Origin: Dimargaris cristalligena
Taxonomy: Eukaryota
Direction of reading: 5' to 3'
DNA length: 56,829 nucleotides
Assembly: GCA_003614675.1 (NCBI GenBank)
Contig: ML002255.1
Location: 1 to 56,829, forward strand
Part shown: positions 20,247 to 45,910 of the stretch, piece by piece
How positions within the stretch are numbered: position 1 is the first letter of the stretch
Layout of the letters: every line of letters starts with the position of its first letter
The notes under the pieces: generated by a model
Databases searched by the model: none
Told to the model about the DNA's origin: nothing
The model's input: only the letters and a program-made list of their open reading frames with translations
Translations under genes and position numbers: made by a program

Positions 20247-20527
20247 CTTTTCCATGGCCTGGTTTGACTAGCAACTCACTTGATTTTTTTCTTAAAGCAT
20301 AAACAGCCGCAATCTTGACCCTAGTGCGCGCACCCCCTCACCCCTAAAACCGTACTCTTTTGATGTTCGAATTGATAATCTCTTTCCACTCACTCACATC
20401 CTCTCTAATTTTTTTACGTCCTTCCTTGACCTTCGAAACACACTTCCCCTAGTTTATATATCCCTTATTCTATATATATATCCACATCTACACTAGATCC
20501 AGCCCCCATTCTCGACCAGCCATTAAC

Positions 20528-20671
20528 ATATGGGTGAAATTCAGCTCGGCTGTACAAGGTTTTAACAGATATGTGTATGGGAAAATCGGTGGGATGTTAA
20601 TTTCCAGCCAGTAGTATTTGCCTCATCAAATGGGTTTTTCGTTATACAGCCTTGTTGAATTACTCCCATAT
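20528..20671 (+). mobile_element. 144-bp MITE-like element, copy 3, between convergent genes
   Basis: ATAT-GGGTGAAATTCA...TGAATTACTCCC-ATAT; most similar to copy 1. Confidence 0.85.
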
Positions 20672-23603: not shown

Positions 23604-25559
23604 GGGTGGGTAGAGCGCACACGCGGGTGGGTGGGGGGGGTTACAGGTGGTCAGTAGAGGACAGTAATGGGTGAGGCAAAAATAATAGCTGGGAGGGAGG
23701 GAATGAGACCCCGGGTGGGTGGTGGTGGGACTATGGCGCGCAAGGGAATGGGGAAGAGAGAAGACGAGGGCGGGTACTCTGAAAAAACGCCTCAACCATA
23801 TGGAAACAGAAGGATGTAGGGGAATAAATATGGTAGAGCGTGTGGGAGAAGCCTCAGAAATTGAAGTAGGCACTATTGGGCAGCAGTCCCTTTTTATATA
23901 ATGTACCCGTTTCTATATGCGTATTTACAGGTAGGTTATATGCCCTTAGCCACCACCACAGTATATTTTTTGCACAGGGAATGGACCACACAGCACCCGC
24001 GGGCGATTGGACAACTCCGGGCAGTGAGAGAAAATATTGCTAAAACTGAGCCCCCCTATTCGCTCCTGGGGCTACTCGACTTGTCGAACGAGGGACGCAG
24101 CATGGCCCATGCGTCCCTTTCTTATACCAATAGTTCGCTGACTTTTAAAGTAGGCTGAACCAGCCAATACTTTATAATGGGGCGAAGACCTATTATTACT
24201 GAATAACTATAACAACAGGCGACTTGCTCCTTAATTCCGATGGAAGTCCTTGGTACGGAAATCCGGGAGAATCGACCGGTTGGCCCGTTCCATTCTGTTC
24301 GATTGGCCGATACCCTCCTATATCCAGCGAATTGAAACGAAAGGATAACTGCTGATCCAACCCCCATGTCCCTCTCCCACCATAGTATTTAGAAAACATA
24401 CTACTCTACGAATAAGCCCACAACACCCACATTTCCAAAGCATATACTTTTAAAGTTATTTATTACAAATGATGAATATCCCAGAACTGCCATCGGACAA
24501 CCTATACGAAACAAGTAAGCCAAAATCAAACATAGAATCATGGATTAGAATCCCGCCTTCACGGAACACACATCAACAGAACCTGCTGTAAAGCAGCCCT
24601 CAGAGATCTTGGTGATAAATTTATAAACTTCATTGCACCTAGCTCGTAAGTAGCAAATATATCAATCATCAGCGGGCATATGGGAGTTGGTTGAATCATC
24701 GATAGCACAGGGGCAATAGACTTACCATTAAAACCACCAACGGACATCACGGGGGGTTACCGATTGGCCTAACGAACATACAGAACACCATCTATTGCAA
24801 CAGGTTTCAGGATCAAGCGGAATAGATAATACTAGTCAATACACAAGTACTGAAATGCGGCAACGAAAGGTCCTTTCATCAAACAGCAGAGGCCGTTGGT
24901 ATATCTCAGCAAAAGTTGGAATCATCGGGAAGCCTTGTGAACAACCCAGATCATACGTAAATTATCCGAAAAACATCAGAGAAGGGGCACACTAACATAA
25001 TACAATCGGTGTGTAGAGGCTTACCTTCTATAGTCAACTAGGCTGGAAGAGATACTAAAAAACACAAGAAAACAAGTGAAATGAGAGAGAAACATAGTTG
25101 CTTAGGCCAGACCGCCTTCTAGCTGTATATAAATATGGCCCCAGGTTTAGCAGGCTAATCAAATGCCTGCTTGCTTCTGATGGGTGGCCTAAATAGCCCC
25201 TTAAAAAAATCAGCAAAAAAAAATTGGATTCAGATATCAGTTTCGGCACGTGACTCAAAAGCAAAGTCAGGTTAAGCATCAAATGATGGTAGAAGTATAT
25301 CAAAATACGCCCCCTCTCTCCCGCACTTAATCTCCTTTGGCTGTGGTTCATGGGAGCAAATGGTTAACAAAATTGGGTACTAGTAGAAACAGATTTGGAT
25401 ACAGGGATATACCAGGTGTTGATAAAAACCAACCGGCGGATGGTTAAATATAGGTGCAAAGTAGCTCGTGGCCCCACTACCAAAAAAAACCCCCCCGCTC
25501 ATGTTCATAAATAAATGTCCATTTGTGATTATAGAGACGCTGATTTAGTTTCTAAATCC

Positions 25560-25703
25560 ATATGGATGAAATTCAAACCAGCTGTATAAGGTTTTACAAT
25601 ATACGTGTATGGGCGAATATCTGTGAGAATAGCTTTTAACCAGTAATATTGGCCTCATCCGATGGATTTTTCATTATGCAGCCTGAATGAACTTCTCCCA
25701 TAT
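25560..25703 (+). mobile_element. 144-bp MITE-like element, copy 4
   Basis: ATAT-GGATGAAATTCA...TGAACTTCTCCC-ATAT. Confidence 0.8.
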
Positions 25704-26155
25704 GTATGTATATACATACTGGCGATTCTAAGTTTTACAATCGAATCACCTTGGTGTCCCAGCTGACGACCCGACTGTTTTTGGATGATGTTGCAGTGTA
25801 GTTCATTCTTTATTGAGGTTTGAAAGGGGTTACTTTGATGTAAATGCAGGATACCTTTGCTAAATCAGTTGAAAAAGTCAATGGTCTCGTTATGCTATGC
25901 ATGAGAATTAATACATACGTGCTAAAATAAGATACAAGCCTAAAGCCCATACTATGGTTTGGAGAAATGAATTCCAGGCTCAAAATTAGATTACCGTCAG
26001 TCTTGGATTCCCCAGCACCGGACCGAGAGTCAGCTCGGGGAGGGTGTGTGTGATTTAATCACCAGGGCGATGGCTGGGCTTACCTAAAAATCCACGTGTG
26101 CCTTAGGCTCTAAGTAGCGCCAATGCCCCTGCCGTTCTCCCGCTTTGCGCCTGCC

Positions 26156-26419
26156 TTACTCCACCTTGCCGCCGGTTTTGGAGTTAGCATCAGTTTTTTT
26201 CTCGTGACCGGTATATTCGCGGAACTTCTCGATGCCCTTATCAAGCGCTTTTTCAAGGCCAATATGCACTGCCACTTCTTTCAGTAGTTCACCGCTAATG
26301 AGGGCCCGTCGTTGCAAGGGGGGTGAAGGGTCGGAGATAGTGTGTATAGGGAATAGGTGGACAGCCGAGGTGAATACCACAACTACTACGGCGGCAGTTG
26401 ATAACCAGTGCGGATACAT
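26156..26419 (-). CDS. Small putatively secreted prepropeptide (87 aa) with LQRR dibasic site and helical 49-aa mature region
   Basis: Hydrophobic N-terminus (WLSTAAVVVVVFTSA), short Pro-rich spacer, LQRR, then ALISGELLKEVAVHIGLEKALDKGIEKFREY...; same strand and architecture as the neighbouring peptide genes. Confidence 0.6.
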   Translation of the reverse strand: MYPHWLSTAAVVVVVFTSAVHLFPIHTISDPSPPLQRRALISGELLKEVAVHIGLEKALDKGIEKFREYTGHEKKTDANSKTGGKVE

Positions 26420-28410
26420 ACTAATTGAACTAATTCGGAGGGTTTGGCTTGGGTGAGAACGGTCTCGTCTGTATAGTCTTGCGTGTCGGATTAGATTGGA
26501 TTGGATGGGGCGTAGTTTGTGGAGTGAGTCCTAAAAATCCATCAAGCCAAAGAGTAAGTTAAATAGATACCACGAATTAATGAAAGCAGGTCGGTGAGGA
26601 TGGCGCCTAGGGCGATATGGTGATACACTCGAAAGTGAATTATCTTCGGATTATCGGGTGGCCTCAGTTAATCACCGTTGTTTGGTTTTCGAGGGAGTGA
26701 AGTAATAAATGGTATCATGTGGAGGCATGGTTGCTATTGTCTGCGTTAAACATTTTACGGACCTTTTGGCAGTAGAGGGGGGTATGCAGATATGAGGTAT
26801 ACGAGGTATATATATACAAAACCAGTAGCATAGATACAACATCCTCTATGACGGTGGGTCCGGTTTATATATATATGTAATTATTACAGGTCGAACCAAC
26901 TAACCCCTCTGTCTCCGGGGACATGGGGTAAAGTATTACGCGAAGGTATAGGCCTGCGTTTATGTTGCTAAGGCGCCAAGGTATTTTTTGAAGCCACGTC
27001 AAATAGTTTGGTAATCCAAGCGACTGGTGGAGGGGAGAGAGGGGGGGGGGGGCTATCAATAAATCCGCTTCATTATTGGCGGTACCCATCGAGGAAGAGA
27101 GGGCGGTGGAGCCCCATGTTATCCGCCAAAACAACCGAAAAGAAGGAATGCCTTTTGAGCACGAATAGTATTATTTGCCATTCACCTGCCTGTCCGGCCA
27201 TACATTTTCTTGTCTGGCTTGGCAGCCTATTGGCCGGAATATCTTTTTTTCCGAAACATGGTCAGTATGACCCCCATTGCCAATTCCTTGGCCGTTCGAT
27301 GAAGGAATTGAGGAGTAGGAGCGACATCTAGTGCATCACTAAGCGGGTATATGAGCCCAAGGGTAAAGACAAAAATAGGCCCAGATGATCTACGCACAAT
27401 CCCTCTCCCCTCCCTACTCATTGGTGTATGTGTCTGTCCGTCCACCAATCCATAGTTCACGGTGGCTCGGGCCCTTGGATAAACCATTTATGCGTGGTAT
27501 ACGGCGGTTGGATAATTGGAAGGGAAGAGGGTGAGTGCGGTTCATTCTACTAGCCCGTTGAACTAGCGCTCTGCCCCATCCATCGCCTCCACATTTACCC
27601 AATCACCGGACTTCCTACAAGCATGCGGGGAGCGCTAGAAATGGAGGGGGGAGGAGTAGACTCACCGCAGGTTTGTACCATTAGCCGACTACCAGATGTA
27701 AGCGGCCGGCCCTTCCACCACACAGGTACACAGGGCAATGTCCTTTGCGTTTCTGGCATCGACTTGGTGCTGGGCATAATTCCCTAAAAACGCACCATGC
27801 AATAAGGATGCCTTACTATGAACTCACTGGCCTATATGGAATCATGGAAACGAAAAAAAAAAAACCTTATCACCGCCACAAGTAAATATTCGGAAACCTA
27901 AACCCGAGTCCCGGTTGTATCCTTTCAGCGTTTTTCGGCTAAAATCACATATATGGTAAATTGATACATAAAAATAAGCAACAGGATTTAAACACCCTCC
28001 CCGCCCTTTCGACAAGCTATATGATAACAATGGTTAAAAACATAAGGTATTTAAAGAGAAATCGAGGCGACCACGGTCTTCATTTGATTGTTTATAATAA
28101 CACAGCGTGTCTGGCGGCAATGTAGGTGAATGAGCCACACAAACCTAAGTCAACGAAGCCGTCCAACATGTAATGGGGGTGGGGGTTTTTGTGGACGGTA
28201 TGAGTATATATCGTATATCTGTACCACTATGTCCCCCGGGTAATTCCCTAATTCTGAGCAACAGGATCCAAACATATAACCAGCCGTAAGCCCCAGAGAG
28301 GCTTTATACAACCAGCTCATTAATAGTCTCATGAAATACCAGTTTATCCTTTTTGTTTGCAGGGTGGATATATGTTTATTGAAAAAGTAGGACGCGCCCT
28401 CACAATAGGG

Positions 28411-28451
<41 letters not shown>

Positions 28452-28583
28452 TAAAAGTCCTGCGAAGGGTAACCATGACTGGATTTTGAATACATACCAA
28501 CTGTGGTGCAAATATCGCTCAAGGCACACGAACAGATGTGGAGGTGGGGAAATCCTGATGGAAAGAATGCTATTTTGAGATTA

Positions 28584-28817
28584 TTATTTGGAGCCAGAAC
28601 CACTGATGGCCCTATTGACACCAGCTTCTGCCCCAGCGTTAGTGGCTGCTTTGCCAGCACTTGATTTGAATAACCTCTTTCCGAAACCAATCGCTTTACC
28701 TAAAATACTATTAGCGCGCTTTTCTAGGACCGGGGCAGCGTGGACGGGAGGTTCTGCTACAAGGTAAACGGCGATAGTCAAAGCTACGAGAGTGGGGATG
28801 GCAGAAGTTAAACGCAT
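28584..28817 (-). CDS. Secreted cationic amphipathic prepropeptide, paralogue A (77 aa)
   Basis: Signal peptide MRLTSAIPTLVALTIAVYLVAEPPVHA, pro-segment APVLEKR, mature ANSILGKAIGFGKRLFKSSAGKAATNAGAEAGVNRAISGSGSK. Frame, length and stop are conserved with paralogue B; prepro changes are mostly synonymous. Confidence 0.85.
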   Translation of the reverse strand: MRLTSAIPTLVALTIAVYLVAEPPVHAAPVLEKRANSILGKAIGFGKRLFKSSAGKAATNAGAEAGVNRAISGSGSK

Positions 28818-29045
28818 GGTGTACGGGGGGAAGTAGGGGTGAGATTGGAGAAAAGAAATATAGGTGTGGAAAATAGGGCCGAAAATTGCAGTGTAGCGAG
28901 CAGAGTTGACTTGGAGGAGTAAATGATAGGAAATGATGGGTATATTGCTAAATGGTAAATGTTAGGATGATGCGGATGAAAGTACGAAAATGATGCTAAT
29001 GGATAGGGTGATAAGGATAGGGTAGGTAAGCTGGATAAACAGGGC

Positions 29046-29053
29046 TTTATATA
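29046..29053 (-). promoter_or_regulatory. Candidate TATA box (TATATAAA) of peptide paralogue A
   Basis: GTATATAAAGCCCTGTTT on the minus strand ~230 bp upstream of the ATG; conserved in the duplicate. Confidence 0.55.
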
Positions 29054-30651
29054 CATTACGTGAAGTAATAGATAGACACTAGCCACCCCACTAACTGTCG
29101 GGGAATGGTATCTTTCTCGCCCGTCTTTTACACAAAAACATGTAGCCCTTGCAACGGAATAAATCGGCCCCGACATGAAATAATCGTCCAATCGTCCATT
29201 TTCATCATAGTGGGCTATATCGCTCAATGGACTAGTCATTGATGACATTACCAAGGCTGCATGATACGCCTACCCTCACCAATACTATAATTATAGATGA
29301 ACATCCAACAATGGAGAGGGCGAGGGGATTGTCGGTTAAATATGAGGTAATCGCGGGATGTAATGCCCCATCGATAGAGTCGAACGTAGCAGCCACCCAA
29401 TCGCCTGTGGCCCCCCATGACCAATGCATTAGTTTGGGCGATCGTCTCTGATCCGTGGAATCCACCCATTTACTATCACTGTACTCTGCTATTTAGGTTA
29501 TAGGTATGATAATATCCCTATCTGCGGGAGGGGGGGTAACGGCTATGTGCATGGTGCCTTTTGCTGGTAAGGGATGTGGGATGTGAAAGCTAGAAGTTAC
29601 CAGTCACTTTATATCAGGCATCGTAATGACTCGCACACCATGCCAGGTCACTACCCCCTCCCGAAGAAGGCACTGTCAAATTTAAAATGAACTTCTTGCC
29701 GTACTAACATCAACTATCCCACCAGCAGGTGAAGACAGTTAGATAACGTAGGCAGGGCGAATAATTCGATTGAAACCATTGGAGTTGAAGGGGGGGATAC
29801 ATAGGATTATAGACGGAGCGGAGAAGGGAAATATGAAAAAAATATATTAATCGAAGTCGAGGGGTTGTAATAAAGAAAAGAGGGAGGTGAGAAACAATGG
29901 GCCGTGGAACAATGTTGGATTTTTCTTTTCGTTATAGCACCCCCCGCTATACAACCACAGTTAAACGCCAGGGTTTCCAGCTTTACCGACTATTGAGGAT
30001 GTAGGCTCTTTTAAACATCAACTGCCCCCGCCCCTACCCATGCCCTCACCCCCCTCCTTTACCTCTGTGCCCATACTTTAACCCTGTCCCTCCTCTTTCA
30101 ATCGATCAACATCTGGGGCTAGGGTTATCCACAATTACGGATAGAGCTCGTTCAGTGAGCTGTAATAAAATTTTTGATTTCGCTTGTTTAGCGGGTGATT
30201 CATTCATCCCAATGGGCTAGCTGTCAGTCCTATCGATAGTTACTATGGTATATAGATACAAAGGACGTACCTGCGGTAGAATCACTAATCGCTGTTTCGG
30301 TACTGACATTCCAAGATTACCTGGTTTATTGAAAATTGTGGCGCTCAGTTCTAATAGTCACTCGATGGATTTGGGTAAGGTCGTCTTATATATGTATGGT
30401 TGATATTATGCGGTGGATAGAGTCTAAAACTTGCATGGTTGGTATGTAAACAACTTATTTGCCAATAACTTACCAGATGTGACGGATTTGTTTCCTTAGG
30501 TGGTATGTGTGCTTGTGTTTTTGTTTGTGTGAGAGTGAGAGTGAGGGCACAGTATAGGTAGGGAATATTCCGCATCTACGGACCTTTGCCCATTATGATA
30601 CTGATTTCTTCAAGCTATTACCTAGACCAGTTGTTATTATCATTGTAATTG

Positions 30652-30795
30652 ATTTAGGTAAAATTTGGCCAGATTATATAAAATTTCCAATGGCATTCTC
30701 ATATATTACACAGGTCGGCAATTTATTCTTAACTAGTGGAATTTACCTTATCCAACGGTTTTTTGTTATAAAGTCTGAATGAATCTCTCCAATAT
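30652..30795 (+). mobile_element. Degenerate 144-bp MITE-like element, copy 5
   Basis: ATTT-AGGTAAAATTTG...TTTTTGTTATAAAGTCTGAATGAATCTCTCCA-ATAT; same length and internal motifs as the other copies. Confidence 0.6.
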
Positions 30796-30844
30796 CTTTT
30801 AAAATAGGAAACACGACTTCAACTCCTACCCCTTTGGCAAACTA

Positions 30845-32160
30845 CAGTGGTACAAATTAGTATAGTAATGGGTTGAACTCCTGGTGCAGGGGGGGTATTG
30901 CTCAGGATCAAATAAACATAAAAATAAATGACTTCCATTAGAAGAAAGCCCTGCTTATCTTGTATATTCACACAACATCATGAGTTTATAATAGCTTCAT
31001 ATAAAAATGTAATGAGGGTTTGAAAATGACTGGTGTACTGATACCCTTTTTCATGCTATCAATAAATAGCTCATTTATTTCTCTGGATTTGAATATCAAC
31101 AAAAATTATTGTGATACAGCTAATAGCTTTCTGCATTTCCTAACTTCTCTTTTTCTCTAACTATAGGCTGATCTTTCTACTCATTATGAAGCTCATAACT
31201 AGGCCAACAAACACAATATCCTGCAGTACTCCTGCAATGACAATAACTACTGAAAAAATATCAAGGTACTTGGTTTAGGCCTTACTACAGTATACTTGGT
31301 TGTTAATAGGGTGCATCCATGCTCTATTCAGGTAACATTATTGTAAAAATAGACCACCCTCACAAGCTATATCAGTGGGATAGGCTGTATCATGTCAGCT
31401 AGATCATGCTAGGAGGGGTGGAAACAGTTGTGGATATCCACAGATTGCTCAGAGGCAATTGGTGTGTCTGTGTATATTAATATGATACATAACAGCCCCC
31501 ACTCAAAGAGATTGTGTGGGGTTGCCAAGCCCAACAAGAATTATTTATCTCCATAAATAGTGTTAAGGAGTATTTTGTTTGGATAGTTGCTTATATAGGT
31601 TGGACTCTGTATAACTGGAAGAGGATTGTATAGGTTAAGAAGACTAACACCATATGTTTCAGGTCTAATGACCACCCCTATATGTAGAAAGATTGGGCTA
31701 AGAAGTTCTAATTGTGCCACATTGATAAAAATATAAAATATGAGATGAAAAATATCTAGTATTAGAGCTATACTATGTTTGATAATAATTACTAAATTGT
31801 CAAGATTGGCAACATACTAAACCAGTACCTCTATAAGAGTATCCTCAAGGAAAATATGTTCTCCTTAGGCATACATCACTGGACCAATACTGACCATATA
31901 ATCTTTTAGTAGAATAATGGCCTTGAATACACAGCTAAATTTGTCCAAAAATAAGTTGCATAGTAACTATTGAACACATACAGACCCTACTTGAAAATTA
32001 TCCCTAATGTGACTATGAATGATTACCTAGGGGGAAGCCCAAGCACCTGGAAAGGATTGAAGCAGCATGATACAGCGCCACCAAAATTAAATGTGGGATA
32101 GTCAATGGCACTTTGCCCATATGCTGCAAGTAAGTGTGTATTGCTGCAAAGTGCAGGATT
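30845..32160 (+). mobile_element. Degenerate Tc1/mariner (Tc1-type) DNA transposon; transposase pseudogene ~31186-32156
   Basis: Possible left end TA|CAGTGG at 30843-30850. Translation from 31601 gives WTLYNWKRIV*VKKTN..FRSND (cf. WTxDDWKRVIWSDETK..FGSDG), LYKSILKENM, and IF**NNGLEYTAK at 31901 (cf. IFQQDNxPxHTAK); C-terminal ERIEAA*...CIAAK. Confidence 0.85.
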
Positions 32161-33778
32161 GGGGAAAGTCGATTTTTTATCGATTTTATCGGGTACGATC
32201 ATTTTCATATTTATTCATGTTGTTATGACGGAGGCAAAGCCATTACTTCAACAATATACACCATCATCACCACTGAAACCGTGGGCGGAAAGCGACCGTT
32301 TATAACAAAGCTCGATAACAGAAAACAGCAGTTATCGATTACGAATAACCATCGCTAGTGACCGCGTGAATACCCCGGTGATATTACATGAACTATTCAT
32401 ATCCGAATGTTTTATTTGAACCCGCCTTTCTCCTCCCTGATTTGGAGAGCATGGATAAGAGCCCGAATATGATCACAAGTACGATTTTCTAGCTATTCTA
32501 ATTATATTATTCTTTAAGATTATTGTCTCCCGAGTATTTCTTATGAATTATTCTATAAATCAGTTTTTGAATGGTTCTTTCTAGTAGACCATCCGTTCGC
32601 TTATCAGCAAAGGATCCACGAAGGTGAAGCCGCAAGTAACCAGGATTCCTTGGGCTCGTTTACGTTAGCCCGGTTCTATTGGATGTTTGATTCTTTTTTA
32701 TAAATAATTTTAATACTCGTTAAATATTCTTATGTCTCGAATGCCCCGGTACCGTTCTGTCTTTCCGAGGGAAACAGAGTCCTCATCATCGTCAGTGTCA
32801 TCATCACCGGTTTCTCGGCCAAGTTTCCCGGAAGTTCGGAGTCTTGCCTCAAGTACCCTCGTGCGGTCTGGTGGCCTACAACCCGAAAGGGCCACGCCGA
32901 ACCCTCCTGGATCCCCGGGTCGTGGCAATACAAGTGATCACTAATAAGGACTACTAAGTGGACTATCAATTGACTTTTATTAGCCCATCAGCGCTTTATT
33001 AGACTTAAAGAAGTGGATTAATATACTAGTTATTTTCAATCCCCCATATCTTGTTTTAGAATGCAGTTATAAACTTATAGTTCTGCTTGTATATACTAGA
33101 AAAGTATGACATTCTCCTAGCGGCACCTATTTATTTATCTCTTCATTAGATCCCGGGCAATTGAACCACAAATTCAATAGGTCAAAGCGTTGATAGTTTC
33201 TTTTCGAGCCACTGTATATGGTGGCATCGACCAACGATGGATGGCATTTATAGGGAAATTGAAGTGGCCACGATCTTCGCGTGATTGTCTAAAAAAACCC
33301 CGGCTTGTCTGACGGTAGTGAAGGCGAATGGGTCACACTATCCTAAGCCAGCGGAGCTGCCCAAAATTTAATGGGGCTGTAGTTTCATGTATATAATAAG
33401 GGTACGAATAATATATCTGCCTCACCATGCCTCCTGGGTAATTACATACAGGCGGAAAACGGTATTCAAATACATAATTGGTCATAAGCCCTGGAGAGGC
33501 TTTGTACCATATTTTTATAAATAATTTTGTGTAATACCCATTCATTATGTTTTGCTTGCAGGGTGAATATATATGTTTATTGAAAAAGTAGGACACACCC
33601 ACAAAAATAGAGTGTCTTTTATATATGCACCAATACACCCATACTGAAAGCCCTGCCAAGGTTGAACCAAGTATAAATTTCGAATACATGCAGAATGAGG
33701 GGGTGGATATCGCTAAAGGTATACGGACATATAGATGGGCGTGGAATCGTTGACGAAATACACGTTATATTGAGAGTA

Positions 33779-34012
33779 TTACTTTGCGCCAGAACCACTG
33801 ATGGCCTTATTGACTCCAGCTTCTGCCCCGGCGGTGATAGCTGCTTTGCCAGCACTTGACCCAAATATTCTCTTTCCGACATTAATCGCTTTGCGGAAAA
33901 TACTAGGAGCGCGCTTTTCTAGGACTGGGGCGGCGTGGACGGGAGGTTCCGCGACAAGGTAAACGGCGATAGTCAAAGCTACCAGGGTGGGGATGGTGGA
34001 AGTTAAACGCAT
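33779..34012 (-). CDS. Secreted cationic amphipathic prepropeptide, paralogue B (77 aa)
   Basis: MRLTSTIPTLVALTIAVYLVAEPPVHAAPVLEKR|APSIFRKAINVGKRIFGSSAGKAAITAGAEAGVNKAISGSGAK. Confidence 0.85.
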   Translation of the reverse strand: MRLTSTIPTLVALTIAVYLVAEPPVHAAPVLEKRAPSIFRKAINVGKRIFGSSAGKAAITAGAEAGVNKAISGSGAK

Positions 34013-34248
34013 GGTGTACGGGGGGGGGGGAAATGGGGGTGAGATTGGAGTAAAGCAATATAAGTGTGGAAAAAGGGGCGGAAAATTGCAGTGTAGCGAG
34101 CAGAGTTGACTTTGAGGAGTAAATGATCAGAAATGGTGTGGGTATAGTGCTAAATGGTAAATGTTAGGATGATGCGGATGCAAATACAGCAGTGATAATT
34201 AATGACAAGAGTGATAAGGATACGAAATGTAGGCAGACTAAACAGGGC

Positions 34249-34256
34249 TTTATATA
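34249..34256 (-). promoter_or_regulatory. Candidate TATA box of peptide paralogue B
   Basis: GTATATAAAGCCCTGTTT on the minus strand, same context as in copy A. Confidence 0.55.
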
Positions 34257-36439
34257 CACCATGTGAAGTAATTGATAGATACTAGCCACTCCACTAGCTG
34301 TCGGGGAATGGCTCCTTTCTCGCCCGTCTTTTACAGGAAGACATGCAGTCCTTGCAATGGGATGAATCAACCCCGACCGGTGGAACAATCGCCAACTCGT
34401 TCATTTACAAGATTTACAGCCATTAATCTAGGTGGACTAGTCATTGTTATGAACAGCATGGCTGCAGGATAAACCCACCTTCCTCAATACTATTATCGTA
34501 GATGGGCAACCAACAAAGGAGAGGGTGGGGAGGAGGAGGGGGGTGATCCTTTTAAATGTGGTAATCACGAGCCGTAGTGCCCCGTCGATAGAGTAGAACG
34601 TAGCGGTCATCCAGTCGCCTGTAACCCCCCACTACCAAAGTACTAGTTTTGCCGGCCGTCCCTGATAAGTGGCGACCACGCCTTTGCTGCCTCTGTATTC
34701 CACTTTTATGGTTGTAGGTATGATTAACGCCCTTTCCGTGGTATGTGTGGTGACGGTTGCGTATATGGTGCCTTTTGCCAGCGTGGGATGTGAACATTAC
34801 AAGATGTTTGGAACTTTCCATCAGTCTTCACAATTACGCGCCAAATATGCAAAAAGTCGCCACCCCATCCCAAAAAAGAAGACGTTATCCAATTTAAAGT
34901 AGGGCCCTTACCGTATTAACATTAATGGCCCCTCCAGCAGGTGAGGGCGGCTAGGTGATCTAGCAGGGCGGATAATACGATTGAAAATATTAGAGTGGGA
35001 GGGGAGCTGGATTGGTGGGTAATACAAATGATTACAGGCGGATCAGGGAAGGAAAAGGGGGGGAAACTATATATTAATAGAAGAGGAGGGGTTGTAATAA
35101 AGAAAAGAGGGAGGGGAGAAACAATGAGTTGTAGATTAATGTCGGGTTTTCCTCGCATTGTAGCGCTCCCTGCTATACGACCACAATAAAGCACCAGGGT
35201 ATATGGCCCCGTCAACTACCAGAAGGTGCAAGTTATTTTAGGCCTTAAATACCCCTGCTCAAAACCACACACCCACTCTTCCCCCCTCCTTCACCTCTGC
35301 GATCGTTCTTTAACTCTGCCCCTCCCCTTCCAACTGATCAACATCTGGGACTGGAGCCAACCATAAGGACGGAAAGAGTTTATTCAGTGGATTGTAAGAG
35401 TTGCTTGGTCAGCGGTTTATTCATCCCAATGGGCCGGCTTTCAACCCAGTTGCTGTCTAATGGAAAGCTCAATGGTAGGACCGGGCTTTATTGACTGTAA
35501 ATATATATATGGCCAATATTTCCTACTCCCATTTTATTATACGCCCTATGTAGCTGGGTCGAAATTACGCCCATGGACCTCAGCCCTTTCCACCCTATCT
35601 ATATTGCTTTATACAGTGCCGATGTACAAAGAAGGTGAACAAGTAGTAGAGTCACCGGCCGCTGTTTCGGTATTGTCATTTTGAGAGTAGGACCAGCTTA
35701 GTTCAGTTAAGGACACTCGGCTTTAATAGTCACACGTTTTGTTTGTTTGTTGGGCAAGGTCTTCATGCATAATTAGGGTTAGTATTGTGCGGCGGATAAC
35801 ATAAAATGTCTGTATGGCTAATGGGCAGCCGACTCATCCGCTGATGACTTATTAGATGTGCCAGTGTGAGTATGAGGGCATCTCGTAAATGGGTATTATT
35901 TCGCGCTCTTGAGCGTCTGTCCATTATGCAACTAGCTTCTTCTAGCTATTGCCTAGATTAATTGCTATTAGCATTGTAATGGGCATAATCAACTTAGGTG
36001 CGCCCGTGTTATTTTGACAACCCTATAAAATGAAAATGCCCAATTTATGGAGCCACTCTATAGTACCATACTTACTCTACTAGAATGTTTGAAACTTATG
36101 TATATGGTAAGAAACGCAAGGTATTATATATTAATGGCTACTGATGGGGTAAAATGGAGGAGGATCTCTCACATTGAATCAATACTTTAATGGAACATCT
36201 ATGGTCTTCTTCTGCCTGGGTTTTTAGGTCACCTGACTTTATAGTCCCAGGTCTATCTCCAAGAAGCACGAAGTCTCTCCTCTCCTACGCTTCCTCAGAA
36301 TCGCTAACTTACCATGGCAATTGGCCAGGATATGCGGAGTCTTGGCAGATGAGAGATGACCTATATTCCCATTCCATTCCATTCCCTCTCCAATTCATCA
36401 TTTGTTTTTTTTTTGGATTTTCGTAACTAATTAAATAAC

Positions 36440-36997
36440 ATGGCTACGTCTACTACCCCCGTCACCAACGCCGACCTCCCCTACGAATGGCACCAAACGC
36501 TCGCCGATGTGGACATTAGCATCCCCCTTCCCGCCGGCACTCGTGCGCGCGACCTCCAAGTAGTGATTCAGAAGTCGCGTATCCGCATCGCCCCCAAGGC
36601 ATCTTCTACTTCTTCTTCTTCTTCTTCCCCTTTGCTCGAAGGCGACCTATTCGCCGCGGTCCAAGTCGACGACAGCACCTGGACCATCGAGGACCAGTGC
36701 CTTTTACTGGTACACCTCGAAAAGCAAAACCGCATGCAGTGGTGGCCCCACGTCGTGACCCACCATCCCCAGATTGACGTGACCAAGATCCAGCCGGAGA
36801 ACTCGAAACTGTCCGATTTGGACGGGGAAACGCGGGGAATGGTCGAGAAAATGATGTACGAACAACAGCAAAAGGCCCGCGGGGAAACGGCGGGAGCGGG
36901 GGCCGATGGTGAGGAGGCCCGTAAACGGCAGATGCTCGAACAGTTTAAACAACAGCACCCGGAAATGGACTTTAGTCAGGCTAAAGTGGATATGTAA
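36440..36997 (+). CDS. nudC: Nuclear movement protein NudC (CS/p23 domain plus C-terminal domain)
   Basis: YEWHQTLADVDI, DDSTWTIED, HLEKQNRMQWWPHVV, PENSKLSDLDGETRGMVEKMMY, FKQQHPEMDFS. Confidence 0.95.
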   Translation: MATSTTPVTNADLPYEWHQTLADVDISIPLPAGTRARDLQVVIQKSRIRIAPKASSTSSSSSSPLLEGDLFAAVQVDDSTWTIEDQCLLLVHLEKQNRMQWWPHVVTHHPQIDVTKIQPENSKLSDLDGETRGMVEKMMYEQQQKARGETAGAGADGEEARKRQMLEQFKQQHPEMDFSQAKVDM

Positions 36998-39900
36998 AAA
37001 CAAAACAAAAAACTAACAGATACATATTGAAGCTGGTTGCTATAAATAAGGCAATTCGAACTATAAGATTAGGTATCCGACGACGTAATTATGATTTTGA
37101 TTGCGCTTTCCTTCTATTCTAATGGCGAGTTCGCCGTGGTCCAAAAAATACGTACGGGTTAGCAAATGCGAGCTATGGGTAAATAGCAGTCACCCCGCTT
37201 TTGTTATTTAGCTGGCACCGACTCCATTCCCGAAATGGAGACCCCCTTATATTTACCAAATCAGTACTCACTACTATTCACCCCCCCCCACCCCATATCT
37301 GCCCAACGAAGTTAATTGCCCCAAATTAGGAAGCCGGTAGCTCGGCAAAATCTTTAAGAAACCTAATCTTCCGTTTCAATAAAGCCAACCCTCTTGACCT
37401 AGCCGTGTATTGGACACGACGAATATGGCAGGATAAGACCCAGGCCCCAATTTGCGGCGATATTTAATCAACTGTTATACCCTTTGTTGCAAATTTGTGT
37501 CGAGGCGGACCTGAGCGATGAGTCTGTAAGGGCCCGGGATAGTGTAGGCCATAAGATCCACTCGCTCCATACGAAACCACCACTAGTATGCCTCGGTAAC
37601 AACCATATTCCGTGGTGGGGTTCCGAAGATCCACCCATCTCCCGGCGGACTTTACAAATGAGAGTCCCCCGACTCTCTCTTTAACCCCTACATTTGCGAT
37701 GTTCATTGGACCCACCGCTGTATAGCACCGTGTTATAGACACCTTTACACGCTATTTTGGACTGCGGTATCGGCCAAAGCAGAGGGTTTAAGGGGTATCA
37801 TTTTAACATGTGATAATGTAGGTTGTATGTGGCATGAACTAAAGCCAGTGAGCTGATTTGCGGTCGGGTAATAGAAATATAAGGGTCGCGCGGTAATGAT
37901 CCACGGCCATTATTCGATAGCACAGACGCTTCTGGGGTTGATGGGGGCTAACTATTGGCGGGTTTAAGATCGCCATCCATCAAATAAGAACAGGAGGTAT
38001 GTATTATAGAGTCAAGGAGAGGAAGGGATTATTATCGTCAAAAACCAACCAAAGGAATCTCCCCCATCCCCTCTACCTCTCACCCTCGCTCCTGGACTAA
38101 AGTATTTAGCACGCATCTAAATATGAAAAGACCGAGGAAACGGACAAGTCCCTCGCATCCCACCCACAAGCCCTTTTAATTGCACCCGCACTGGACTGTA
38201 GTTGTATAACACTTATCCCTGAAGAGGCACCTATAGGCCCATCGTGCAGGATTTACCCATAAGGGGAAAAGACCCGCGACAATCTCGGGTGTCATTCTAT
38301 TTCATGTAAACCCCCCTCACCCTACCTGGATCCCCGGAATATATATGACACCGTGCCAATCATTTACCAAACGACCTCTGCTTACTGGCCGATGAAAGCT
38401 GATAAGAACGGAAGAGCCCCGTGCATAAATGATGTATAGCCAGCCACACATTCGTGACCAGACTGCTTATCCCTGGGATATTCTAGGGTTGGCATATAGA
38501 ATAAGGGTATAGAGAGTAGAGGGTGTTGAGTCAATGGAGAGACCCGACTGGCTGGTCAAACCTAACTATATAACTATATAAAAATTCGGCTTGATAAAAA
38601 ATAAAAAGAACGGTCTAACCCCGTGAGCCGCCCCTGCGCCTCATTGGCAAGAAGCAAGTCACGCCACTATCATGGGCGTATGATATCGCGACTGAATAGG
38701 CAAAAATGGTTTAAAGGCGAAACGAAACAAAGACGGAATGGCAGCATATCCCCTCCGAGCACCAGCACGACCCTCTCTATAGGGACTGTTTCCATACCTG
38801 AGTTGAGTAGACTTGATGGAGATACTACTAGTAGTGCCGACAACTCCCTTAAAACCCCTCTATTTCAGCATGCCCATGTGTGTGTGGTGGGGTCAACCCA
38901 CTACTGGCTGAGGTTTTGTATACATGATCAAGCCTGCGGCCCCCCACCACCTACCTACACGCACATCCCCATCTACCCACATAAACACGAGGAGTCAAAG
39001 TGGCGGTGCTGTATAGATCGTTCGTTGTTGGCGTGAAGCGGGGGTGCCCTACGGACCAATCCCTTGAGCACCTTTTTGAAGAAATAGGTAAGTAGACAGA
39101 GAGAAAAAGGTGGGTGTGGTTGATTGGGCTTGGAGGGACGAGACTCTATAGTCGGAGAGTTACGCTATCCTATCGATAATTCACGTTTAAAATGGACCCC
39201 CGTTTCGATTCTATGTTCATACTACTCATAATAATACTAAAAGATTTGAACGCCAAGAGTAATTTTATTGGGCCGCCACCTCAGGCAGTTTTTAATGAAC
39301 GAACATTAATTACGAGAAGTTGGATAATCCCTGCAGGTGTCAGTTGGAAGGTTGGCGACGAAGAATGAAACTGAAGGAAATCACAATTATAGCATCCGTA
39401 CGCGCATGCCTTCCACCTTGACGCCCTTTCCGCTTGGAATTCATTTCTTGGGGATTTCCAAACATCTCGTTGGGAGAAGGCTCGGGGAATGGTAGGCGAC
39501 CAACTAATTCTAACCTACAAAAAAAAAAGGAGGGGGAGGAAGGACATCATAGGTGTGTAGGAGGGAGGAGGGTAGAGATAGATGGGACTGGGGCGGAACG
39601 TGTTGTTGTGGGTTATTAGTGATAACCATTGGGGCTATAGGAAAGGGGGGATATGTATGTTTCATTATTAGCATGGCCGGACGAATCGTCGGGCCCCTCC
39701 CACTAAACCGGAAGGCTCCCGAAAAACACTATGGCGTTACCGACTGGCCGTATAGTAGGTGTGACAATGTCACGGCCGCCACGACTAGATTACACGACCG
39801 AATCAGCATCCCGCCATGATACCATTATGTTCCAAGTACAGCCATATCGTATACTCTGGAGCAAATGGCTAATGAACCCTCCCCAACCGACGGACTAATG

Positions 39901-41013
39901 TAGTGGGCATGTGGGGAAATACGCCGTGGAGGAAATAGGGAAGCTGGGCGGAACTGTGTTTAAAATATGTGGCCAGCTAGCTATAAGGGAAAAGTGTTTA
40001 GAGAAAAGGGTAAACCGGCCGCTATTCCTAAACTACACTTGGACACTGTATCCCGAACAACTCATCCGAAATAGGCAACCGGATTGACCCAGGGGCGTGT
40101 CGAGAGGAATCCTCGAGATATACTATAACGAAGCCTTCGGGACTAAGAAGACCTGAAGGGCCTTGGCAGTTGGGGGAGTCCAGCCTCCTACTTCCGGTGG
40201 AGACTCGATTTTCCTATGCCCCATTGCGAATACAAAGGAAGTTCCTTACATTATGCCTAGCCGCCGCAGGAGTAGCCCGGAAAAGGAAAGGTGAGCGCCC
40301 TATAGCGAAGACCCGATACCTCGACTACCACCACCTCTGTGGAGGGGGGGCGGCCTGGGGTAAAGGCCAATTAAGGAGGAAATCCACGGACTAGGCCCAA
40401 CAGTCAGTCTGGCGATGTACAAGGGCCAGCACCATTGTTATCAGCAGGGCAGATGGCTGGAAATTAAAAATATATCCCTTAATAGAGAAGGAGGCCTTTA
40501 AACTAGGCGAGGAGAGGGGGGAGGTGCCTCTCTATTCAGGGTGCGTGGAAATATATCCGCCAAAAGCAATTTTATACGCACCCTGTTTTATAAATGTGTA
40601 CCCAGGTATATATACCGTAAAAGCATTTATCTCTTACAACCTTTTCATTACTATATTAAAGATACCGATGAGATGATGCCCTCCCTATATTCCCCACTCT
40701 CTCTCCCCCTTCTTTATCAGCTAAGGAGCACGCCATCGCCAGCCAATCAACCAGTAGGATGGGCCGGGGACAGGTAATGCAGTTCAGTAGCACCACCAGC
40801 ACGAATCTCACAGTGTGTATATCAGCTGGCCCACCACACTCTGCCAAAAGACCATTTCGGCCATGGGCGCCTTCTGGATGTATTCCCCTACTCCGACAGG
40901 GGAGAAAACCCTTGAAAACAAAGGGACGCAAAGACAAGAAAAGCAAAGAAACCCTGTCCGCAAAACAACGGTCACAAAGGCCAGTCTCGGAACCACCCGC
41001 CTATAGGGGATCC

Positions 41014-41046
<33 letters not shown>

Positions 41047-41885
41047 CATTCAAGGCGGTGGTGGTGAGCCATAGTGGGCTGGAATGGGGAGGAGGCGTTG
41101 CTGGGCCATAATAATGCCCAGCGGAAAAGGGGGCATGAGGTGCGGATAGGGAACCCGAGACTGCTGACCAGGCGGCCCCGATTGGGAACCGTGACTGGTC
41201 TACGTATAACCTCCTCCCCCCTTTCTCATATCGCGGGCCACTCTAAATTGTGGGGCGGAGTGGGATGGAAATGACCCGCCCAGAACCGAAAAGAATCATC
41301 TTATCGCAGTCATCAAAGAGGGTGGCGGCAATGATTAATGAAGCGTAGAAATGGAAGGAACTGGCAAAGCGGATGTGGGAATATAGGCGCACCTGACCCC
41401 ATTAGCCGTATCTAATCAATTCTTCATTCCCAATACATGCAATATACCATACCATACTGTACTATACTATACTATACTATATTTATACATATATACATAC
41501 CCACAGACGTGGCCACCCCACCTTGCCCCGCCGCCCCACGCAGCATCCCGGCGCACTAGTGGTCCCCTACCCGAAGGAGTGTTCCTCGCGACAGCGGCAC
41601 CTCGTTCAGTTGATGCACAGCAACGGCTGGGAAACAATACAGTAAAGTTGGTTTATCCTCTCCTATCCAGCCCACGTGCCAAAGGGAGACACCGAATGAG
41701 AAGTGACGCTAAACTGGGCTGGAAAAGGAGGAATTTGAAAAAAAGAATAAAAGGGGGGAGGGGTGTTGAAAGGTCGAGTGATTCTTGTCCATTTTAGCCC
41801 CCTCGCCATTATAAAAATACGCATGGCATCTGTCCAAAACGAGTCACACTGCCAGTTCTATTCCATCACACACCCACCCACATGT

Positions 41886-41916
<31 letters not shown>

Positions 41917-43809
41917 CACATCTGTACTTACGTAGATGCAGCCGAGTGGATTATAGGTGACGGCGGAATGGCTCTTCCAAGTAGCCACTATTCGCTATCG
42001 ATGGCGCCATCATTGTAGGGGTTGTCGGTACACACACATACGCACACCTGCTTTAATAGACCGACCATGGTAGGTATAGTGACTGCCCAGTCGCTGCAGG
42101 TATATTGACCCCTCCATCTAGAAGGACCAGCGCCCGCCCATCTGACGAGAATAATCAATCAGCTGAATACATTATGGAGGAGTGGTGGTAGTAGGTGCCA
42201 GATCCGCAGTGACTCGGAATAGACAAACTCACCCGAACGGCCGCATCGTATCTTTCCAGGATCGCTTGTAGCCGGAGGAAGAGTGCAATGCCGGTCCAGC
42301 CGAAGCCCTGGGAGGTTAGATTCCCGCCCTTTCGGGGCAGCCGCAAGCTATAGACAGGCACGTGAGCGGGGTGATGATGATAGGAGAAGCCCCTCTCCAT
42401 CTTCGTATATCTATTTTTTTCTGGTTTGGCGGACAATCAATGTGGAAAGGTGGGTGTGTGTGTAAAAAATAGAAATACACTAGTGAGAGGAGGGCGCATT
42501 GTTTCTTGGCACTAAAACGAGTCCGCCATACCCAAAGTATGGGTGGGGTCCGCCAGTAGACTTTTTACCGATCACGGGATTATTAACATCCGAAATTGGG
42601 GCCAAATAATTAGTATGGAGAAGGAGGAGGTATTTTCTTCCATGGATGGCCCCCTCTGGTACTGTGTAATGCGGTTGATTTATTTTTCGCAACCGTATAA
42701 TGGCAGTTGGTGCGACCACTAGAAACAAGGAAAAGAGATGGTGTATATTGAACCAGTGACCATGTGTGCGTTGGGGAGAGCGGTTGGACTGCTGCCAAAG
42801 CCAGACAACCATAGCCTCTATACTATTATCAGCGTAGAAGGGGTGTGTGGGCACTGAAACAACAACCAACTGTATTTTCACCCCTATCGCTGGGCCTGAA
42901 CCGGAGGATACCAGCAGGTCCATAGTATATACCCCGACCAAAACTAACCAACTACTCTGGTTTAGCGTAGCAGCTGCCTGCTAAGGACGATTAGGAATCC
43001 TCCAACCACCTCAACTATGGCCATAGGGGTTGGGGAAGAGGAGGGGGTGGAGAACCAAACAATTACCGCACCACACCACACTGACACGGCCCCTTTTACG
43101 GCAACAGGCCGATTTCCACGGCCCTGGTTCACCACTGGGGCGATTAATTTTGAGTGGGGAAACAGTCGGTGGTTAAATTGGGTGGCTACTATAAGCGGCA
43201 ATCGACACTGCCTGACTACTGACCCCTGTACGGCCGGGGTTTTCTCGTTCTTTTCTCACTTATTTAGATATATATATATATATAGTTGGGTAATACTGAG
43301 TGACAACCCCGTCTGGAATATGGGGAGGGGGGATCTGGCTGGGCAGGGCCCATGTGGATAACAGTGAATCATTGAAGCTGTTCCCTTTGGGCGTGGGAGG
43401 CGGCTCTTATGACGATAGCAGCTGTCTGCCTGTCTTATCAGTAAGATCAATATCACCCCAACACGAATACCAACATCAACATCAGCACCACTACTGTAAT
43501 AAGGGGGATATATATTCCCCAGCTCCCTCTTCTTCCGGTTAACCCTCTAATTAACGGAGATGAACACCCCCAATAGATTGGCCATTCACTGCGGAACCCC
43601 AACCGCGTTACAACAAGTCCCACTGTGCAGTCACTTGGTTGATTTTTTTAGCCATAGAGAGGGGGTACATATATATGAGATGGAGAGGCCCCTTTCATCG
43701 CCCATAGACGGGAGGTAACCCAATCACTACTATGTATATATAAATGTACATTTTACGTTATAATAATAACATCGCCGCTGATAAGATGACGGCCGGTTGG
43801 TTGGTTGTA

Positions 43810-43980
43810 ACTTTTTAAGTGGTCACATGAACCAATCAAGTACTTTTTAAGTGGCCGCATGAACCAATCAAGTACTTTTTAAGTGGTCGCATGAACCAAT
43901 CAAGTTGGCCGGGTGTTACTTAGGCATGGCTAGTTTTTATAGTGGGCCGGGTGTTACTTGGGCATGGCTAGTTTTTACAG
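43810..43980. repeat. Compound minisatellite: 32-bp unit x3 followed directly by 38-bp unit x2
   Basis: (ACTTTTTAAGTGGYCRCATGAACCAATCAAGT)x3 at 43810-43905; (TKGGCCGGGTGTTACTTRGGCATGGCTAGTTTTTAYAG)x2 at 43905-43980. Confidence 0.9.
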
Positions 43981-45131
43981 TTAGAGGGTTTTGGACTCCA
44001 GTGTTCTCTCCTCTTCCTCGCATATACCACATCCCTAACCCTAACTAACACCAAAACATGCTTCCACTTAACCTACGAACTTTAGATTGTCGCCTCTCGG
44101 TGGCAATTAATTACAGGGACTCTTTGGCCAGGCTAGTAAAGTATCCCTGACTGCTGGAATATAATATACTCAACACCTCTCTTTACACCAGTAGTGTCCA
44201 TTTGACATGGGGGGGTTAGGAAGAGAAACACACTAGATCTATTAAGTGGTGGTCCTTGCACTTGGCGAGATCCCCCCCTCATGGTTATTATTTAGAAGGA
44301 TCTATTGTTAGCAAATAAGATGGGGGGGGTTAGGGCACACAGTAAGGCCGACTAGGTGCATGGCCGATCCTGGACAACTTGCAGGGCCAAAGATGAACGC
44401 CGCACACTGATTAAGCACCAGAAAGTGTGGGTTAGGGAACCCCAATTGGTGGCATGGTGAGATGACGTATTCCATGGAAGAGGGAGGTTTTATATTGTCC
44501 ATGGCAACACAGCCGCCGCTTCGTCTGGCTTATAATGGCCGATATTCCACTACCCTTCTTGCCACTTCCTCCTCCCCAACCCTCAAGATATATACGGGTG
44601 CGGTCACAATAACCAACAATAACCAGACCTGGCCTGATACAGCGAGGGAGGAAGGAAGGGTGACTACGGTGATGGAAATGAAAAGGATGCATTGGTCAGA
44701 CCACCCGGTGGATTGGGAACAGAACGGGAAAATGGGGACCGAGTTTCACCGAGAGTCGGGCACTGATTGGTTGCCGTATTCGAGGAACGGCCGACAAAGG
44801 AAGCGCGGAGGTTGTGCTCATCCAACGCTGAAGCCGCCACCTCTCTCTCCCTCGCCTCTCTAATTTTTATATCTATACCTCGCTCTTTTCCCGAGTGCCG
44901 TGGAAAGGGCGATTTCTATATATAGCAGTATACTGCTGGGTTAGTCGAAGGGGAGGCGCAGTCGAGAGGGAGGGTGGTATAGCAGCTAATGGATTAACCA
45001 TTAGGCTAGTCTACTTGTACTCTCTCTCTCTCTCTCTTGTACCGGCCCTAGTTGGCATGGGGTAAAATGAGACGGACCGACAGGATAATCAGGCGCCGGT
45101 CACAACAACTGGATATTATACTATAATATAA

Positions 45132-45178
45132 AGGGGAAAGAGAGTGACCGGGATAGGGGAAAGAGAGTGACTGGGATT
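45132..45178. repeat. Short tandem duplication (2 copies, ~23-bp period)
   Basis: AGGGGAAAGAGAGTGACCGGGAT followed by AGGGGAAAGAGAGTGACTGGGAT. Confidence 0.75.
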
Positions 45179-45843: not shown

Positions 45844-45866
45844 ATTATTATTATTATTATTATTAT

Positions 45867-45905
<39 letters not shown>

Positions 45906-45910
45906 CAGTA
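45844..45910. repeat. Compound microsatellite (ATT)n(AGT)n
   Basis: ATT repeats run directly into AGT repeats. Confidence 0.95.

Follow-up and report, generated by a model that had tools for sequence, protein, structure and literature searches.

A pair of tandem paralogous genes (copy a and copy b) was identified on contig ML002255.1 of Dimargaris cristalligena (assembly GCA_003614675.1), positions 1 to 56,829. This whole stretch of 56,829 nucleotides (nt) was analysed and is referred to below as the window. Both genes are open reading frames (ORFs) of 77 codons on the minus strand, read with the standard code. Copy a occupies positions 28584-28817 (ORF listing and selection statistics) and copy b positions 33779-34012 (ORF listing and BLASTP), stop codons included. 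The two proteins are identical at 65 of 77 residues in a gap-free alignment (BLASTP, E = 4e-44), and 32 of the 234 nt differ between the coding sequences (CDS). Each protein begins with Met-Arg, followed by a 19-residue hydrophobic core, EPPVHA, APVLEKR and a cysteine-free peptide of 43 residues (43-mer). An initial annotation had described two ORFs of 77 amino acids (aa) with a signal-like N-terminus, APVLEKR and a Cys-free 43-mer, and it was borne out in every one of these elements. The sequence, its processing motifs and a divergence that preserves the faces of a helix fit best a secreted cationic amphipathic peptide.

The duplicated segment

The ORF pair sits in a tandem segmental duplication of about 2 kb that was delimited by blastn (first copy, 28046-29974; second copy, 33243-35200). 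The two segments are 74.0% identical over 1988 alignment columns, 89 of which contain gaps, and are separated by a non-duplicated, AT-rich spacer of 3.2 kb. Repeat families in the duplicated region are spaced 5195-5370 bp apart. The earlier description of the genes as duplicated therefore holds beyond chance, given the segmental duplication and the excess of CDS identity over the flanks (p = 2e-6). A third copy was not found when both peptides were compared with the window by tBLASTn (next best match, E = 0.048). Assemblies of Dimargaritales are reported as non-haploid in the available part of PMC9866270. A haplotype assembly artefact as the source of the tandem copies was rejected because the flanks have diverged by 26% and the 3.2-kb spacer is unique. 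The 3' flank of copy a contains a (TA)n microsatellite (28420-28450) that copy b lacks.

Evidence for protein-coding genes

Identity between the copies is 202/234 (86.3%) in the CDS versus 1237/1678 (73.7%) in the flanks (binomial p = 2e-6), and no indel event was found in the CDS versus 18 in the flanks (Poisson P(0) = 0.08). When neutral evolution was simulated at substitution and indel rates like those of the flanks, the ORF stayed intact at the same length in 0.3% of 200,000 runs. By the Nei-Gojobori method, the whole CDS contains 17.0 synonymous differences over 60.7 sites and 15.0 non-synonymous differences over 170.3 sites, which gives a synonymous divergence (dS) of 0.35, a non-synonymous divergence (dN) of 0.094 and a dN/dS ratio (omega) of 0.27 (Fisher p = 8e-4). 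The differences are distributed 8/6/18 over codon positions 1, 2 and 3 (chi-square p = 0.02). The guanine-cytosine (GC) content is 0.50-0.54 in the ORFs versus 0.37-0.45 in the flanks, and both copies share a CACC-ATG start context and a TAA stop at the same codon.

Conservation between the paralogues is also structured along the gene. Against a flank background of 60-70%, identity reaches 82-88% in the TATA region, 83-93% in the leader and 77-90% in the CDS; it falls to 36/60 (60%) just 3' of the stop codon and then rises to 83% over a block containing AATAAA. In copy a, a TATATAAA box (TATA) lies 236 nt 5' of the ATG (29046-29053, minus strand), followed by a leader that is 72% CT, has no upstream ATG and is 83-93% identical to that of copy b (28818-29045, minus strand); the AATAAA is found 204 nt past the stop, inside the conserved block (28375-28380, minus strand). 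The corresponding elements of copy b, all on the minus strand, are a TATATAAA box (TATA) 244 nt 5' of the ATG (34249-34256), a CT-rich leader without an upstream ATG (34013-34248) and an AATAAA 198 nt past the stop (33576-33581).

Leader and core promoter together (28810-29161 and 34013-34360) are 82-93% identical versus about 72% at the synonymous sites of the CDS, which suggests constrained regulatory or leader sequence. Further upstream, more conserved blocks are present at 29850-29909 (85%) and 30084-30143 (75%). An ORF of 146 aa at 28808-29248 (minus strand) overlaps the leader of copy a; it was rejected as a gene, having no counterpart in copy b.

An antisense ORF of 53 aa is open in both copies (28606-28767 and 33801-33962, plus strand). 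In the antisense frame whose wobble positions fall on those of the sense frame, omega is 0.24, and dN/dS on its own is therefore no guide to the strand. The 24 codons covered by the sense frame only contain 5.0 synonymous differences over 20.2 sites and 2.0 non-synonymous differences over 51.8 sites (p = 0.015), and identity in the sense-only parts is 46/50 and 19/22 versus 36/60 immediately beyond the stop of the sense frame. Promoter and poly(A) signals point in the minus-strand direction. The genes were assigned to the minus strand because of ORF completeness, the constraint on sense-only codons, the boundary at the stop codon and the orientation of these signals. The antisense ORF was rejected as the coding frame, since constraint also covers the 24 codons that only the sense frame has, and stops where the sense ORF stops. 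Copy a and copy b are very probably real protein-coding genes, and the omega of 0.27 together with the conservation of the CDS over its flanks indicates purifying selection and agrees with the initial annotation, which held them to be duplicated genes.

Precursor organization and predicted processing

The predicted signal peptide comprises codons 1-27 (copy a, 28737-28817; copy b, 33932-34012; minus strand) and is identical at 26 of 27 residues in the two copies. Signal cleavage was placed by applying the -3/-1 rule by hand. Cleavage after VHA (residue 27), with Val at -3, Ala at -1 and two prolines, which break helices, at -5 and -4, is the most likely on these grounds. The following propeptide APVLEKR (codons 28-34; copy a, 28716-28736; copy b, 33911-33931; minus strand) is identical in the two copies and has a Kex2-type end. 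Kex2 prefers an aliphatic Leu at P4, Lys or Arg at P2 and Arg at P1, according to the available part of bioRxiv 10.1101/2020.05.27.120113, and L-E-K-R is an exact fit to this preference. The N-terminus is signal-peptide-like, as had been proposed, the proposed Lys-Arg (KR) processing motif is in keeping with a published specificity, and the products are probably secreted and processed by Kex2.

A second Lys-Arg is present inside the mature peptide at positions 13-14 (28674-28679, minus strand, in copy a) and is kept in copy b, which makes it a possible second Kex2 site. Its P4 residue is Phe or Val, its P1' residue is Leu or Ile, and it lies inside the predicted helix. Cleavage at this position would yield a 12-mer (net charge +1/+2) and a 29-mer (+3/+2) instead of the 43-mer. 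Of the earlier description of a 43-aa mature peptide, the part that stands is that 43 residues follow the KR of the propeptide; the final product is uncertain, given the conserved second KR.

Mature peptide and pattern of divergence

The 43-mer carries 7 Lys/Arg and 1 Glu (net charge +6) and no Cys in both copies. Hydrophobic residues occupy mature positions 4, 5, 8, 9, 11, 15 and 16 and basic residues positions 7, 13 and 14; this spacing and the tail SSAGKAA(TN/IT)AGAEAGV are present as first described. The first 18 mature residues (copy a, 28662-28715; copy b, 33857-33910; minus strand) form a predicted amphipathic cationic helix by hydrophobic moment (muH, Fauchere-Pliska scale), and in copy a by helical wheel as well. 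The muH is 0.47 in copy a and 0.49 in copy b, with a sharp peak at 100 degrees and a hydrophobicity (H) of 0.36-0.38. When the 18 residues were shuffled, the observed muH was reached in 171/5000 (copy a) and 99/5000 (copy b) cases. The remainder of the peptide (mature residues 19-43; copy a, 28587-28661; copy b, 33782-33856; minus strand) is an Ala/Gly/Ser-rich tail; it is not amphipathic, with muH below 0.21 from residue 19 on and H of 0.02-0.13 in the C-terminal half. The helical-wheel check that the initial annotation had suggested thus favours a cationic amphipathic helix in the first 18 residues, as modelled, with the pattern kept in both copies. AlphaFold2 (AF2), run on the two-sequence alignment, placed helices at residues 6-21, 28-51 and 53-73 with low confidence (predicted local distance difference test score, pLDDT, 62.8).

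Seven of the 18 helix positions differ between the copies (N2P, L5F, G6R, G10N, F11V, L15I and K17G). On the hydrophobic face, L5F, F11V and L15I each exchange one hydrophobic residue for another, and the four radical changes (N2P, G6R, G10N and K17G) are all located on the polar face. By hand calculation, such a face-respecting arrangement of the seven changes is expected in 3!x4!/7! = 1/35 of random assignments. The net charge of +6 is kept through a compensating gain (G6R) and loss (K17G), and the direction of the helix moment differs by 10 degrees between the copies.

The strength of constraint differs along the precursor. Codons 1-34 (signal peptide and propeptide) contain 7 synonymous differences and 1 non-synonymous difference (omega 0.047, p = 5e-4), whereas omega is 0.67 for mature residues 1-18 and 0.19 for the tail (residues 19-43). 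Counted as substituted residues, this corresponds to 1/34 in the prepro region, 5/12 in the 12-mer and 6/29 in the 29-mer. The dS is 0.29 in the prepro region, 0.43 in mature residues 1-18 and 0.39 in the tail (0.41 for the mature part overall), which is near the divergence of the flanks. Gene conversion was rejected as the cause of the prepro identity, because the dS of 0.29 is like that elsewhere; the similar dS across regions indicates purifying selection rather than recent gene conversion. A frozen prepro region beside a variable mature segment is found in animal antimicrobial peptide (AMP) and toxin gene families.

Searches for relatives

Neither the full-length proteins nor the mature peptides matched a Pfam-A family at E <= 10 (hmmscan), and at the same threshold there was no match to an NCBIfam family or to a PDB chain. 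These three collections offered no characterised family as a relative; it is a match of this kind, to a non-toxic family, that the initial annotation had named as counting against it. No homologue was found in a word-index protein search or in the ESM Atlas, and none of 182 pattern matches in metagenome contigs was confirmed. A phmmer search against 1.84 billion protein representatives returned 5 matches, none a true homologue: all are low-complexity proteins of 2518-7214 aa, aligned in 5-19 stretches, and were rejected as compositional noise. Four annotated proteomes of Dimargaritales are included in the phmmer library, so there is no annotated homologue among them, although unannotated small genes are possible. 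An exact protein look-up was negative in a collection that seemingly lacks the source species' own proteome, to judge from the absence of its PUF/RRM protein from the matches to the neighbouring gene. In the open-access literature searched, which was also covered for linear and candidalysin-like fungal peptides, no description was found of such a family in Zoopagomycota or mycoparasites. From the sequence comparisons, the pair is rated as an orphan, lineage-restricted family on the known theme of Kex2-released amphipathic peptides.

Proposed function

The neighbouring single-exon PUF/RRM ORF (16503-20246) is 86% identical to that of Tieghemiomyces parasiticus, 79% to those of two Dimargaris species and Dispira simplex, 61% to that of Basidiobolus and 54-59% to those of Kickxellales/Harpellales. 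The genes had been called fungal from the sequence alone, and these identities to Dimargaritales (Kickxellomycotina, Zoopagomycota) support that attribution. According to the available part of PMC9866270, Dimargaritales are parasites of Mucorales, and some of Chaetomium, by way of appressoria and haustoria, and live almost exclusively on dung.

From the motifs and the conserved amphipathic pattern observed in both copies, we infer secretion, two processing sites, membrane activity and a target. In the proposed mechanism, which is given a probability of roughly 0.4, each of the tandem genes of this Dimargaritales mycoparasite would encode a prepropeptide whose hydrophobic N-terminus directs it to the endoplasmic reticulum. 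Signal peptidase would cut after VHA (residue 27) and a Kex2-type convertase of the Golgi after LEKR (residue 34), and a Cys-free peptide of at most 43 residues with a charge of +6 would be secreted. On anionic membranes, its first 18 residues would fold into an amphipathic helix that binds and perturbs the bilayer, and the Ala/Gly/Ser tail would be flexible or weakly helical. Likely targets would be competing bacteria of the dung or the plasma membrane of the host fungus at the haustorial interface. The product of the pair is thus a candidate membrane-active antimicrobial or cytolytic peptide, a reading somewhat less likely than not. A more specific version is distinctly unlikely: lineage-specific, Kex2-released, pore-forming or membrane-perturbing peptides that an obligate haustorial mycoparasite directs against the host plasma membrane or dung bacteria. 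They would be a functional analogue of candidalysin with an independent origin in early-diverging fungi, and would evolve in the manner of animal defence peptides, the prepro region being frozen while the amphipathic warhead diversifies.

Several points weigh against this mechanism. The signal peptide was judged by rule and not by a trained predictor, and its long hydrophobic core of 19 residues might serve as a signal anchor. The hydrophobicity of the helix (H 0.36-0.38) is moderate, and three Gly are present in the helix of copy a. If the internal KR were cut, the amphipathic 18-mer would be destroyed. The tail is more constrained than the helix, which is not predicted by a model of helix as warhead and tail as spacer. 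Only two sequences are available, and every evolutionary statistic rests on 32 differences; the low omega of the antisense frame belongs here as well.

Characterised ribosomal antimicrobial proteins of fungi are mostly Cys-rich, and essentially no molecular weaponry of this fungus-on-fungus parasite has been described. If the proposed mechanism is true, the pair would represent a second, unrelated family of Kex2-released, Cys-free helical peptides, this one in Zoopagomycota, and linear cationic peptides, a strategy of the animal type, would then be represented in early-diverging fungi too. Haustorial mycoparasitism would gain a testable effector candidate, and structure-activity work a pair of natural variants that differ by 12 substitutions but agree in charge and amphipathic register.

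Alternative explanations

A two-peptide precursor, from which Kex2 cleavage at the two KR sites would free a KR-flanked, hypervariable 12-mer and a conserved 29-mer, is an unlikely alternative. The products would be signalling or recognition peptides, or short surface-active peptides, rather than a lytic helix of 43 residues; cut in this way, they would be candidate signalling peptides in a lineage without known peptide signalling. The motif GKR is kept in both copies despite a synonymous AGG/AGA change inside it, the P4 residue is Phe or Val, and divergence is concentrated in the 12-mer. In the candidalysin precursor Ece1p, Kex2 cuts after every KR (available part of PMC12153327), and a hydrophobic P1' residue is well tolerated by Kex2 (available part of PMC10135057); cleavage at the internal KR is therefore possible. 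However, the amphipathic register crosses this KR (positions 4-16), with K13 and R14 on the polar face, as is expected if the helix functions intact. A further point against it is that paralogous pheromone genes usually encode identical peptides. The 12-mer, flanked by KR on both sides in a secreted precursor, resembles the products of repeat proteins that Kex2 processes (KEPs), such as alpha-factor, Rep1 and the precursors of dikaritins, which are peptides made on ribosomes and modified after translation (RiPPs). The published definition of a KEP asks for 4 or more fragments upon in-silico cleavage at KR/RR and for 3 or more repeated motifs (PMC6339444), whereas the pair would give 3 fragments (7, 14 and 29 aa) without a repeated motif and was not classed as such. 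A dikaritin-type RiPP precursor was likewise rejected, as there are no repeats and no tailoring-enzyme domain in the 30 ORFs scanned. Dikaritin precursors contain repeated cores and have neighbouring genes for UstYa/DUF3328 proteins, tyrosinases or methyltransferases.

A secreted, non-lytic small protein is unlikely to about the same degree. It would be an intrinsically disordered effector directed at the host fungus, or else a surface or repellent-like coating of aerial structures, with the helix serving for binding and not for membrane damage. A signal peptide with a short KR-ended pro-domain is common in fungal effectors (available part of bioRxiv 10.1101/2020.05.27.120113), and amphipathic KR-released peptides of the Rep1 type exist (available part of PMC12153327). 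The conservation of the low-complexity tail (omega 0.19) and the position of the genes within about 12 kb of AT-rich sequence that has no Pfam domain also fit such a protein. On the other hand, the pair has no Cys, no fold and no known binding motif, and a charge of +6 combined with a face-preserving helix is more specific to membrane-active peptides.

Non-functional chance ORFs, or decaying relics inside the duplicated segment, are highly unlikely. The failure to find a homologue in protein, structure or metagenome searches would be expected of them, and codon preference was neutral and uninformative (two of the five reference frames, PUF and SPP41, were out of frame and were disregarded). 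The lack of an upstream ATG in the leader is not significant either (P 0.24-0.32). Against these points stand the selection on the CDS (omega 0.27, p = 8e-4), its conservation over the flanks (p = 2e-6), the rarity of an intact ORF in neutral simulations (0.3%), the conservation boundary at the stop codon and the conserved TATA box, leader and AATAAA.

A small membrane-anchored protein, in which the 19-residue hydrophobic segment is an uncleaved signal anchor and the constraint on residues 1-34 reflects a functional transmembrane domain, is the least probable explanation. In its favour are the length of the hydrophobic core and the identity of 33/34 N-terminal residues at a dS of 0.29, where ordinary signal peptides usually evolve fast. 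Against it, the c-region has the canonical form, with V and A at -3 and -1 and PP at -5/-4. Kex2 would also have access to a luminal LEKR, and the C-terminal peptide would be released anyway. A conserved prepro region with a variable mature part is, moreover, typical of peptide-toxin and AMP families.

Comparison with known systems

For the membrane-active peptide proposed here, the nearest functional precedent is candidalysin, which is likewise a ribosomal, Cys-free, linear amphipathic alpha-helix released by Kex2 at Lys-Arg from a secreted fungal precursor. The KR-flanked candidalysin is processed by Kex2 and then by Kex1, as given in the available parts of PMC12153327 and PMC8787473. No sequence homology between candidalysin or Ece1p and the pair was found by phmmer. 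Ece1p is a polyprotein of 271 aa with 7 KR sites, in contrast to a precursor of 77 aa with 2 KR sites. Candidalysin has 31 residues, is very hydrophobic and contains only 3 Lys (available part of PMC12153327), whereas the peptides of the pair are moderately hydrophobic with a charge of +6, and in charge and hydrophobicity are nearer to the bacterial-membrane-selective type of AMP. Candidalysin comes from Saccharomycotina, the pair from Zoopagomycota with a mycoparasitic lifestyle.

The predicted layout of the pair, a signal peptide before a short pro-domain with a Kex2 motif at its end, is also that of effectors with a Kex2-processed pro-domain (K2PP), such as SnTox3, ToxA and SIX1/4/6. The K2PP pro-domain has Leu at P4 and Arg at P1 and is removed before secretion (available part of bioRxiv 10.1101/2020.05.27.120113). 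By the K2PP criteria available from that part of the paper, the LEKR of the pair lies 7 residues past the predicted signal cleavage site. K2PP effectors are folded proteins of 100-250 aa, for the most part rich in Cys, and their pro-domain helps them to fold; the pair has a Cys-free cargo of 43 aa and a pro-piece of 7 residues.

The animal AMPs (dermaseptins, cecropins and bombinins) resemble the pair in having a signal peptide, a KR-ended pro-piece and a Cys-free cationic amphipathic helix. The conserved prepro region with a more variable mature N-terminus is a further likeness, as is the helix-break-helix arrangement that AF2 predicts for the pair at low confidence. The pair differs from them in that its pro-piece is not acidic and its C-terminal half is not hydrophobic. 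Dermaseptins have a Trp as their third residue and, in the middle region, the motif AA(A/G)KAAL(G/N)A. Neither peptide contains a Trp, and AGKAA alone is present in both copies; this match is a low-complexity string of 5 residues. Membership of the dermaseptin/frog-skin active peptide (FSAP) group was rejected, as no Pfam family was matched at E <= 10 and Pfam holds dermaseptin/FSAP models. Cecropin membership was rejected as well: there is no Pfam match, and the N-terminal helix is amphipathic but the C-terminal half is neither hydrophobic nor amphipathic by H and muH. The label "dermaseptin/cecropin-like" can therefore be retained for the architecture but not for a sequence relationship, which neither Pfam nor PDB supported at E <= 10. 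The view that the resemblance to dermaseptins is convergent is upheld, the likeness being one of architecture and not of homology.

Genomic context

The housekeeping genes of the window encode NBP35/ParA, an RRM protein, an SPX-RING protein, a CS-domain protein and SPP41. Among the 30 window ORFs of at least 90 aa that were scanned, the only domains found were PUF/RRM, RRM, SPX-RING, NBP35/ParA, CS and SPP41; a RiPP-tailoring enzyme was not found among them, although shorter or intron-split genes could be missed. No Pfam domain was detected in the scanned ORFs of two low-GC stretches (24000-36400 and 37000-48000; GC 0.37-0.48), the exception in these surroundings being the CS-domain gene at 36431-36997. 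These stretches may represent a gene-sparse compartment or contain lineage-specific genes.

A third small ORF of 87 aa is present at 26156-26419 (minus strand), about 2.1 kb downstream of copy a and on the same strand. It has a hydrophobic N-terminus, PLQRR and a charge-neutral stretch of 49 residues with a strongly amphipathic segment (maximum muH 0.57, reached in 78/5000 shuffles). It is unrelated to the pair by hhalign and has no homologue in Pfam, NCBIfam or the word-index search; in the ESM Atlas, the closest cluster is "Bombinin", whose value of 0.76 lies under the noise level. This ORF may represent a further prepropeptide gene or have arisen by chance.

A dispersed repeat of about 145 bp occurs in four copies with 78-92% identity (344-487, 20527-20671, 25559-25707 and, inverted, 53126-53273) and is possibly an element similar to a miniature inverted-repeat transposable element (MITE) or a short interspersed nuclear element (SINE). 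A dispersed 5S rRNA gene was identified at 52524-52642 on the plus strand (Rfam RF00001, 87 bits), and a match to the C/D-box small nucleolar RNA SNORD24 is present at 24596-24677 on the minus strand (44.9 bits versus a gathering score of 41).

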